Below are positions 48,013 to 49,487 of a DNA stretch of 64,000 nt, in pieces. Both the position numbers and the translations under genes were made by a program. Every line of letters starts with the position of its first letter. The first letter of the stretch is position 1. The notes below the pieces were generated by a model. It was not told the DNA's origin and made no database searches. It saw only the letters and a list, made by a program, of their open reading frames with translations. This DNA comes from Candidatus Heimdallarchaeota archaeon (GTDB lineage Archaea; Asgardarchaeota; Heimdallarchaeia; Heimdallarchaeales; Heimdallarchaeaceae), in the NCBI GenBank assembly GCA_016839945.1, contig JAEOTE010000025.1:1-64000 (forward strand), written 5' to 3'.

Positions 48013-49059
48013 TTACTTCTTTGAAGAGGATTTCTTTGTTTTAGTAGATGATTTAGTCTTAGTTGTCGTTTTTGATTTTGGTTTTGTTTCAGTTTTCTTC
48101 TTTGCAGTTGTCTTAGGTTTGGTTGTAGTCTTGGGTTTTGGTTTGGTTGTAGTCTTAGGTTTTGGTTTTGCTACAGCTTTAGGTTTAGGTTTGGTTGTAG
48201 TCTTGGGTTTAGGTTTGGTTGTAGTCTTGGGTTTTGGTTTAGTTGTAGTCTTGGGTTTTGGTTTAGTTGTAGTCTTGGGTTTTGGTTTAGTTGTAGTCTT
48301 AGGTTTTGGTTTTGCTTCAGCTTTAGGTTTAGGTTTAGCTTCTACCTTGGTTTTTGGCTTAGCTTCTACTTTGGTTTTTGGCTTAACTTCTACCTTAGGT
48401 TTAGGTTTAGCTTCTACTTTGGTTTTTGGCTTTTTCACAACCTTCTTTTCTCTTTTAGGAACAATATCTGAAAGTCTAAGTCTGGAAGTTGATTTTATTA
48501 CTACACGATAATAAGATCCTGATTCTCCCATAAGTGGATTTCTTATAATTTTTATAACATCTCCAGGTTTTGCTTGTATCGCTTTAACAGCAGGATCTGT
48601 TTCCAATACTTTTGGAATTTGATGTTTTTCAATCTGATATTGTTTTAAGAAAGTATTAATCTCTCTGGAATTTAATCTCAAGTGCTGCGGTACATGTTCA
48701 TGATCAAAAATATTAAACAGAGGATTTGTACTGCTAATAATTTCAATTCCTAGCTTAACTGATTCTTTCTTTGCATAATGAGTCAAGGGAGCTTCTGCAA
48801 TTAATAATGCATTATCAATTTCATCTTCTTCTTGAAGTTTTCCTAAAATTCTGATTGTTTTTACTCCAATTTGGGGATTTTTAGGAAATCTTGCAATAAC
48901 ATTTGCTTTTCCACCATCTTCAACAGTCATTAGACCGTAGACATCAAGATAATCATCATCTTCTTTAGTCTTATCAATTTTAAAGCCTCGAAACTCAAGA
49001 ATTTCTTTGACTCCCTTAACAATTCTTTTTTCTTTAGCTTGTTGTTCTTTGGATACCAA
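48013..49059 (-). CDS. rpo5: RNA polymerase subunit Rpo5/RpoH with RPB5-like N-terminal domain and Lys-rich repeat tail
   Basis: Core [12 protein letters not shown]...IPKV..TDP......[10 protein letters not shown]...YYRVV; N-terminal [13 protein letters not shown]; KPKPKTTT repeats. Confidence 0.88.
48100..48432 (-). repeat. coding tandem repeat of about 24 bp (KPKPKTTT / KPKTKVEA octapeptides)
   Basis: Units such as ttggttgtagtcttgggttttggt, about a dozen imperfect copies. Confidence 0.9.
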
Positions 49060-49121
49060 GAGAGTTACCTCGCCATCCCTTTTTTTCTATGAATTTAAAA
49101 TTTTTTGACAAGTGAGAGCTT

Positions 49122-49487
49122 TCACTTTTCTTTTTCTTCTTCTTTTTTCGATTTTATTCGGATGTAGTAAGAACCGTCCTTATTTCTTGCAATGATTGGG
49201 TCATCATCATTAGATTCAACAATTAATTTATCAACGTCTACTTCAAAAACACCTTCTTTTGTCAAACGAATAGCTTCTAATCCCTCTTGAATGTCAGTAT
49301 CTTTTATTTCCCTATCTATAATAAGATCTAATTCGTGTTCTACCCTCTCATCACCTGAAGGTTCTCTGAATGTTTTAAATTTAAAAGATCCACAATATGG
49401 ACAACCATTAACAATTATTTCTGTGGATAATGCTAATTCTTTCTCGCAAATCGCACATATTGTTTTCTTTTTGGTTTGTTCTGACAT
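49122..49487 (-). CDS. oapC: Zn-ribbon protein, DUF2072 (OapC-like)
   Basis: CAIC...I..GCPYCGS.KF; E.IR....G.FE.D...L; GSY.I. Confidence 0.75.
   Translation of the reverse strand: MSEQTKKKTICAICEKELALSTEIIVNGCPYCGSFKFKTFREPSGDERVEHELDLIIDREIKDTDIQEGLEAIRLTKEGVFEVDVDKLIVESNDDDPIIARNKDGSYYIRIKSKKEEEKEK

Follow-up and report, generated by a model that had tools for sequence, protein, structure and literature searches.

Rpb5 forms part of the downstream-DNA path in archaeal and eukaryotic RNA polymerases, and charged tails are known from several polymerase components, some of them basic, like the Lys-rich tail of Pol I A34.5, and others acidic, like the N-terminal region of Rpb6 and the tail of Bacillus delta. 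Archaeal subunit H, which consists of the RpoH domain alone, cross-links to downstream DNA at +10 to +20 in initiation complexes and, in elongation complexes, makes contacts 1–7 nt in front of the active site; Rpb5 cross-links at +5 to +15 (PMC2847245). In Sulfolobus, Rpo5 is adjoined by Rpo13, which occupies the place where the eukaryotic Rpb5 N-terminal domain lies (PMC3479171). Rpo13 binds dsDNA but not ssDNA, non-specifically and weakly (Kd ∼2 µM), and dsDNA binding is abolished when its Lys-rich C-terminal tail (aa 85–104) is removed; its authors proposed a tuning of non-specific versus specific DNA contacts (PMC3479171). The same study (Wojtas et al. 2012) stated that the N-terminal Rpb5 domain is present in no archaeon, a statement that predates the discovery of the Asgard archaea. 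The basic tail of Elf1 has likewise been mentioned in connection with downstream DNA (PMC7289017).

We analysed a 64,000-nt stretch of DNA (the window) from the assembly (G000) of a Candidatus Heimdallarchaeota archaeon of the Heimdallarchaeaceae, which carries an rpo5 gene with a long, repetitive, Lys-rich 3′ end. A sequence-only reading had singled out positions 48013–48460; on the minus strand these are the stop codon and the final ∼148 codons of a 348-codon ORF (48013..49059). The features of the locus are as follows.

48013..49059, minus strand: complete rpo5/rpb5-like coding sequence, 348 codons plus stop, TTG start (ORF list and translation)

48730..49059, minus strand: N-terminal restriction-endonuclease-fold domain (aa 1–∼110), equivalent of the eukaryotic Rpb5 'jaw' (phmmer, AF2, Foldseek)

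48499..48717, minus strand: RpoH/Rpb5 C-terminal assembly domain (aa 115–187; Pfam RNA_pol_Rpb5_C)

48433..48498, minus strand: family-specific basic linker (aa 188–209), IKS-x-SRLRL followed by a K/R-rich lead-in to the repeats (orthologue alignment)

48121..48432, minus strand: tandem array of 13 in-register 24-nt units, that is, octapeptides (aa 210–313; TRF and unit listing)

48016..48120, minus strand: degenerate Lys/Thr/Ser-rich C-terminal end (aa 314–348), with the stop codon at 48013–48015 (unit listing)

49093..49100, minus strand: candidate TATA-like TTTTAAAT, ∼35 nt upstream of the rpo5 TTG (read by eye only)

49125–49487, minus strand: oapC, coding for an origin-associated protein homologue (OapC), directly upstream of rpo5 (Pfam E 5e-11)

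The rpo5 TTG aligns with the ATG or TTG starts of orthologues (M or L before VSKEQ/ATKEQ), and since the start residue is shared, the TTG start is credible. The candidate TATA-like sequence sits in the 62-nt gap between oapC and rpo5. Two genes of F420 biosynthesis, cofD and then cofC, follow directly downstream on the same strand, cofD lying 41 nt past rpo5, and rpoB is found on a separate contig (C3). In a genome profile search, PF01191 gave one match in the whole 3.0-Mb, 88%-complete assembly, at the coordinates of the Pfam domain of rpo5. Considering that this is the single PF01191 gene in the assembly and that core identity within the genus is 70–92%, the tailed Rpo5 is probably the working subunit, and we infer that it is incorporated into RNAP. 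An antisense ORF (48119..48511, plus strand; 130 aa of V/L/G/F repeats) was rejected as a mirror reading of the repeat array without support.

The protein that precedes the tail proved to be Rpo5, as had been read from the sequence. Pfam RNA_pol_Rpb5_C (PF01191) covers aa 115–187 over its full profile (1–73) with an E value of 2.3e-22 and 79 bits against a cut-off of 23.5 bits. When the core was compared with PDB sequences using phmmer, aa 39–197 of human RPABC1 aligned to aa 22–175 of the query (E 1.2e-18), and the best matches were eukaryotic Rpb5, not archaeal subunit H. At aa 13–109, Pfam gave weak restriction-endonuclease-fold matches only (Mrr_cat, NA-iREase1), and PF03871 remained below threshold, with E values of 3.6e-4 to 0.1 in orthologues. 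An AlphaFold2 (AF2) model of Rpo5, built on 26 homologues, had pLDDT values of 81–95 in the N-terminal domain and 65–88 in the C-terminal domain. In a Foldseek search of the PDB, the top 36 matches were full-length eukaryotic or viral Rpb5, 35 of them over ∼195–220 aligned columns (best E 7e-14); archaeal Rpo5/H structures cover only the 75-aa C-terminal domain, with TM scores of ∼0.74–0.79 normalised to the target. Based on the phmmer and Foldseek matches to full-length Rpb5, we conclude from sequence and model that the core has a eukaryote-like, two-domain Rpb5 architecture. It is a genuine member of the eukaryotic Rpb5 (RPABC1)/archaeal RpoH family (PF01191), and its N-terminal domain resembles that of Rpb5 in both sequence and fold.

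Two-domain Rpb5 is widespread in the Asgard phylum: matches span query aa ∼8–190 in most sampled families (also at loci L025–L045). We found no description of two-domain Rpb5 in Asgard archaea in the searchable literature, an absence that is not proof of novelty. The eukaryote-type N-terminal domain is arguably more consequential than the tail among the features of the rpo5 gene. Variants of the protein were seen elsewhere in the phylum. In families f3 and f4, which belong to the same order as the present family (f1), Rpb5-like proteins (L026–L030; G036, G028, G026, G037, G040) are 430–500 aa long; their ∼270 extra N-terminal residues include a poly-Lys linker and possibly additional REase-like domains, and precede the Mrr_cat-like and Rpb5_C domains. 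In many genomes of f11, a pair of Rpb5-like genes lies side by side (for example, G212:C3:4336-5520 and G166:C410:5249-6444).

Past the canonical C-terminus, the IKS-x-SRLRL extension is common to all members of f1; in the family alignment, I188, S190 and R193 are invariant and K189, L194 and R195 nearly so. Beyond this linker lies the repeat array, for which TRF reported a period-24 array at 48116–48312 (8.2 copies, 89% matches, score 296), enclosed by period-48 and period-72 arrays over 48113–48429 (score 362). Units 1–5 are of the KPKTKVEA type or KPKPKAEA and are followed by eight KPKPKTTT units with one KPKPKAVA interspersed. The eight KPKPKTTT units vary only at three synonymous third-codon positions, and one neighbouring pair is identical at 24 of 24 nt. 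Over its ∼145 residues (aa ∼204–348), the tail contains 39% K, 23% T, 17% P, 5.5% V, 5.5% A, 5% E and 4% S, and its net charge is about +50, compared with +5 for the 203-aa core (11% K). From aa ∼193 to the end, the AF2 model has a pLDDT of ∼50 and neither helix nor strand. With the isolated tail, Pfam gave no significant match, only sub-threshold compositional ones (Trypan_PARP, E 0.014; DUF3432). We conclude that the Rpo5 tail is predicted to be an intrinsically disordered polycation.

What the sequence-only reading observed is borne out, and its interpretation is supported in part. As the ORF, the Pfam domain and the PF01191 search show, the tail exists, is in frame and belongs to the one Rpo5/Rpb5 gene detected in the genome, and the description as highly basic and probably disordered agrees with the composition and the model. 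It was, however, described as about 150 aa of octapeptide repeats; a low-complexity tail of nearly this length is present, but only ∼104 aa (the 13 units) are true octapeptides. It was also called Thr-rich, which is correct for this protein but is not a conserved property, Thr plus Ser ranging from 11 to 34% among orthologue tails.

To place the tail within the genus, 24 loci were read (G000 and 23 other congeners). A Rpo5 orthologue was present in all 24 sampled congeneric genomes, with core identities of 70–92% in 23 and, in G016, no more than a partial match (41%) across the C-terminal domain. All 24 loci carry a Lys-rich repetitive tail, and the frame is open to a normal stop except where the contig ends or Ns intervene. 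Counted from the YR-x-VV strand, complete N-free tails measure 81–160 aa, with 30–41% K and net charges of +20 to +54, and the tail in the G000 window is the longest and most charged among those sampled. The repeat unit differs between species (KPKTTT, PAKKTT, the 11-mer AAKPKEATKKP, KAKATPDK, KPKKTPSKTA and also 17–23-mers). A repeat was detectable at 26 loci, and at each of them the DNA period that scores best is divisible by 3 (18, 24, 27, 30, 33, 48, 51, 54, 66, 69 or 72), and either alternative frame of the tail loci contains 1–29 stops. Lys is the only residue conserved across the tails of the genus; S/T-P motifs number 0–8, and the lowest Thr plus Ser content, 11%, is that of L008.

Compared to its closest relative, G003 (92% core identity), which uses 18-nt KPKTTT units instead of 24-nt units, G000 shows gaps of 18, 6 and 12 nt. 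By inspection of the DNA, both the core and the final ∼100 nt of the tail look well conserved between the two, the degenerate C-terminal end as well as the core, and the centre of the array is rebuilt from 18-nt units. Length variation had been predicted from the near-identity of the units, and between species both unit and length indeed change quickly. A metagenome search for strain-level copy-number variants, made with an exact/IUPAC 32-mer from the core–tail junction, found no match in the contigs; a protein-guided scan returned only an 80% relative, a 92% relative that breaks off at aa 160, and two that are distant. A frameshift-like tail occurred in only one of 47 related database proteins. 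This protein (P0032, 295 aa, a cluster representative of the genus) ends in a Q/N/H-rich tail with QNQKQHQVRQP repeats, which looks like a Lys-rich repeat read in a shifted frame, whether through a sequencing error or as a real variant. Because in-frame Lys-rich tails are found throughout the sampled genus, with periods in multiples of 3, while the sequence is remodelled, what selection appears to maintain is the frame, the content of lysine and the positive charge rather than the sequence, leaving turnover by slippage free.

Ordering the family from basal to derived on a maximum-likelihood tree of Rpo5 cores suggests where the tail arose. In the most basal genus (g12), the tail after the last core strand is 24 aa long and mixed, with a net charge of +6; in g11 (two single-contig assemblies) it is 33 aa long and acidic (net −6); in g13 it comprises 72 aa, a short basic patch followed by a long acidic run (net −16). 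All long basic repeat tails fall in the clade of the present genus, g1, and its sister genus g10 (support 90/90), both genomes of the latter having a Lys-rich tail. Outside f1, the protein usually ends at or near the YR-x-VV last strand, the f5 proteins being 181 aa long, and some other lineages have acidic tails (for example, G272 of f7 and G111 of f12). Since the tails of the basal f1 genera are short and acidic or mixed, and those of the other sampled Asgard lineages acidic or absent, the long basic tail is a derived trait of the g1+g10 clade, with a single origin followed by retention. The same distribution indicates that Rpo5 can function without a basic tail.

A wider survey covered 144 representatives examined from the 150 best of 1,817 Rpb5/RpoH-like hits in a library of 1.84 billion proteins. 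Among these 144, a long basic C-terminal extension was found only in the representative of this genus, in most the chain stopped no more than a few residues from the last strand, 11 were extended by at least 30 aa (several of them acidic), and one had a 35-aa K-rich end. The differences from described Rpb5/RpoH thus lie in this extension, confined to one clade among the 144 of 150 best hits examined, and in the location of rpo5 away from rpoB. A long polycationic tandem-repeat tail on Rpo5 or Rpb5 was not found described in the searchable literature, and this absence is not proof of novelty either. The core and charged RNAP tails are of known kinds; what the searchable literature did not yield is a clade-wide basic repeat tail on Rpo5 that is swapped for acidic or mixed tails in basal genera. 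Compared with other charged RNAP tails, the distinctive point is that acidic and basic alternatives occur at one Rpo5 position within a single archaeal family.

The tail had been called histone-H1-like, and this is apt for its composition. With the C-terminal domain of linker histone H1, chlamydial Hc2, AlgP and the tails of actinobacterial HupB it shares ∼35–40% Lys, Pro and small residues, as well as short repeats, rapid divergence and predicted disorder. This likeness is one of composition and does not amount to evidence of homology. Measured against an H1 C-terminal domain, the tail has 39% K, 17% P and predicted disorder, but Ala is largely replaced by Thr (5.5% A, 23% T), and S/T-P motifs, including S/T-P-x-K, are absent from it (some orthologues have 5–8 S/T-P). 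The globular winged-helix Linker_histone domain had no Pfam match in the whole protein or the tail at E values up to 10, and chlamydial Hc2 (PF07382) had none to the G000 tail at E up to 10; the tail of one orthologue (P0026) reached 31.9 bits with the HC2 profile, below the 40-bit cut-off. Nor does the tail have the make-up of an Rpb1 CTD: there is no conserved consensus, periods range from 6 to 23 aa, S/T-P motifs number 0 here, and T+S varies from 11 to 34%. With the Rpb1 CTD and the Elf1 basic tail it shares the principle of a low-complexity charged extension on an RNAP subunit or bound factor, which here would modulate nucleic-acid contacts, but subunit, sequence and repeat differ. The nearest precedent in function is Rpo13, whose Lys-rich C-terminal tail is required for non-specific dsDNA binding (PMC3479171). 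This likeness is functional only: there is no homology, the Rpo13 tail is ∼20 aa long and non-repetitive, and the tail described here is ∼145 aa long, repetitive and within Rpo5. Rpo13 itself (PF12136, with a helix-turn-helix core) was not found in G000, the control search being positive in Sulfolobus; Elf1 is present in G000.

The genomic background bears on how exceptional the tail is. The genome has a GC content of 32%, and 7 of 4573 open frames of at least 80 aa pass a filter for Lys-rich low complexity, namely Rpo5 and six others: a gelsolin-like protein, a uS4–HhH fusion, Rrp41, Alba, a 4174-aa giant ORF and a probably non-coding KKKS frame. The Rpo5 tail is the extreme case; apart from the KKKS frame, none of the other six is as long and pure. 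Individually, uS4 (L051, G000:C125:2847-3803) has the S4 and S4/S9 N-terminal domains, a K/P/E-rich linker and a C-terminal HHH_5 domain (E 2.8e-14); the gelsolin-like protein (L050, G000:C89:97090-97812; small, with a weak Pfam match, E 1.5e-3) has an internal KPKPKPKAEPK-type linker that is closely similar to the Rpo5 tail of the sister species G003; exosome subunit Rrp41 (L052, G000:C34:6178-7158) has a (KEVKEAPKKEV)n C-terminal repeat tail; and Alba (L053, G000:C89:113180-113641) has a K/E-rich N-terminal extension. The 4174-aa frame, on the minus strand of C89, shows by eye a topoisomerase-VI-B/ATPase-like start, many helix-hairpin-helix-like repeats and a Lys-rich C-terminal end.

Histone-fold genes (PF00808) were not found in a genome search of G000. 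Within the family they were found in 3 of 30 genomes, in f3 in 2 of 12 and in f4 in 1 of 3; in three other families of the class, they occur in all genomes (22/22, 12/12 and 2/2), with 1–12 copies each. This scarcity agrees with a published remark on order UBA460, provided that the order is the same (PMC10919886). We asked whether the basic tail goes together with a lack of histones and rejected the idea: no PF00808 gene was found in 27 of the 30 family genomes whatever the charge of the tail, which leaves no specific correlation within the family. Since the acidic-tailed genera also lack histones, histone absence is context and not a correlate.

What might such a tail do? We consider it reasonably probable that the disordered polycationic tail of Rpo5 binds nucleic acid non-specifically, the most likely ligand being downstream duplex DNA. 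This reading is rated best because a 145-residue polycation anchored to the last RpoH strand should easily reach the downstream DNA. The sequence-only reading had proposed DNA binding near the downstream-DNA jaw, which is plausible by analogy with the published data on subunit H and Rpo13 (PMC2847245, PMC3479171). In such a mechanism, a disordered polycation of ∼145 residues, attached to the last strand of the RpoH domain, would arise, and keep changing, through slippage or unequal recombination of short in-frame DNA repeats that are A/C-rich. Flexible and anchored beside the downstream-DNA channel, it would bind nucleic acid electrostatically and without specificity, and would thereby raise or tune the hold of RNAP on duplex DNA during initiation and elongation, as the Rpo13 tail does in Sulfolobus. 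Incorporation of the tail into RNAP, its binding to DNA and any effect on transcription are here inferred. In a bolder form, which is speculative and quite unlikely as a whole, the RNAP of a histone-poor Heimdallarchaeaceae clade would have a built-in DNA tether resembling a linker histone; with it, polymerase would clamp downstream DNA, scan it or gather in clusters on the nucleoid, the acidic tail of basal genera would do the opposite (nucleic-acid mimicry or release), and tail charge would act as an evolvable affinity switch.

The tail could instead be low-complexity sequence that expanded almost neutrally, an A/C-rich repeat that is prone to slippage, grew at a permissive C-terminus and is tolerated without a specific role. 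Unit, period and length do differ in almost every species, the tail is short and acidic or mixed in basal genera and acidic or absent in other sampled Asgard lineages, and K/P or K/E stretches recur in the gelsolin-like protein, uS4, Rrp41 and Alba of G000; a GC content of 32% favours AAA/AAG codons, so that mutational bias in this AT-rich genome could explain part of the composition. A neutral tail would, however, be expected to be often frameshifted, truncated or lost, yet it is in frame and Lys-rich in 24/24 congeners and both g10 genomes, its K content stays at 30–41% in complete N-free tails and all repeat periods are multiples of 3. In addition, the non-repeated tail ends look conserved with G003 (by inspection) while the centre is remodelled, and only 6 other ORFs of 4573 pass the low-complexity filter, none as long and pure except the probable non-coding KKKS frame. 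We therefore regard neutral expansion as unlikely. Still less credence attaches to the tail being an artefact of assembly or gene calling, with a collapsed, chimeric or mis-framed repeat. Repeat copy number is unreliable in short-read MAGs, and the contig breaks off within the tail in 5 of the 24 congeneric assemblies and in both g10 genomes, one further congeneric locus containing a run of Ns. Nevertheless, independent assemblies of more than 24 species agree on a basic tail that is in frame, reaches a proper stop codon and has a K-rich end of similar kind, and in the window the array is 48 kb from the start of a contig at least 64 kb long, with cofD just beyond it, which makes an artefact hardly credible. 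The sequence-only reading had proposed a comparison of sister genomes; relatives carry the tail, as judged from 24/24 congeneric loci and both g10 genomes (81–160 aa in the genus where complete and N-free), and artefact is largely excluded for the existence of the tail, an exclusion that does not extend to exact copy number.

Polycations also bind RNA, polyphosphate and acidic proteins, and the charge pattern of the tail is not ligand-specific. It might accordingly bind a ligand other than DNA (nascent RNA or rRNA, which would couple it to the exosome or to ribosomes; polyphosphate; or an acidic partner protein) or drive clustering or condensation of polymerases. The other low-complexity proteins found in G000 are mostly RNA-related (uS4, Rrp41, Alba), and the bacterial H1-like protein AlgP reportedly organises polyphosphate granules (PMC9239181). 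We consider this improbable: the subunit to which the tail is attached is the one that cross-links downstream DNA (PMC2847245), the nearest precedent, Rpo13, binds dsDNA and not ssDNA (PMC3479171), and nothing in the analysis points to a particular alternative. The suggestion that Thr-rich repeats form a phosphorylation-regulated platform like a CTD is not supported. The 23% Thr of this tail and the TP-x-K-like motifs of some orthologues (up to 8 S/T-P per tail) speak for it, but S/T-P motifs number 0 in G000, Thr plus Ser falls to 11% in L008, and the conserved property is lysine and positive charge; with only Lys conserved across the genus, a CTD-like platform is disfavoured and very improbable.

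Should the tail be merely tolerated low-complexity sequence, it would be an annotation curiosity; it also marks a spot where short-read assemblies break. If, as we favour, it binds DNA, nature would provide here, across a whole clade, a case of polymerase–DNA affinity tuned by a fast-evolving charged tail. This case would fall in the archaeal class Heimdallarchaeia, to which the closest known relatives of eukaryotes belong, and in a family in which histone-fold genes were mostly not found. With one folded core bearing a basic tail, an acidic tail or none across related genera, the family would offer a simple test system.
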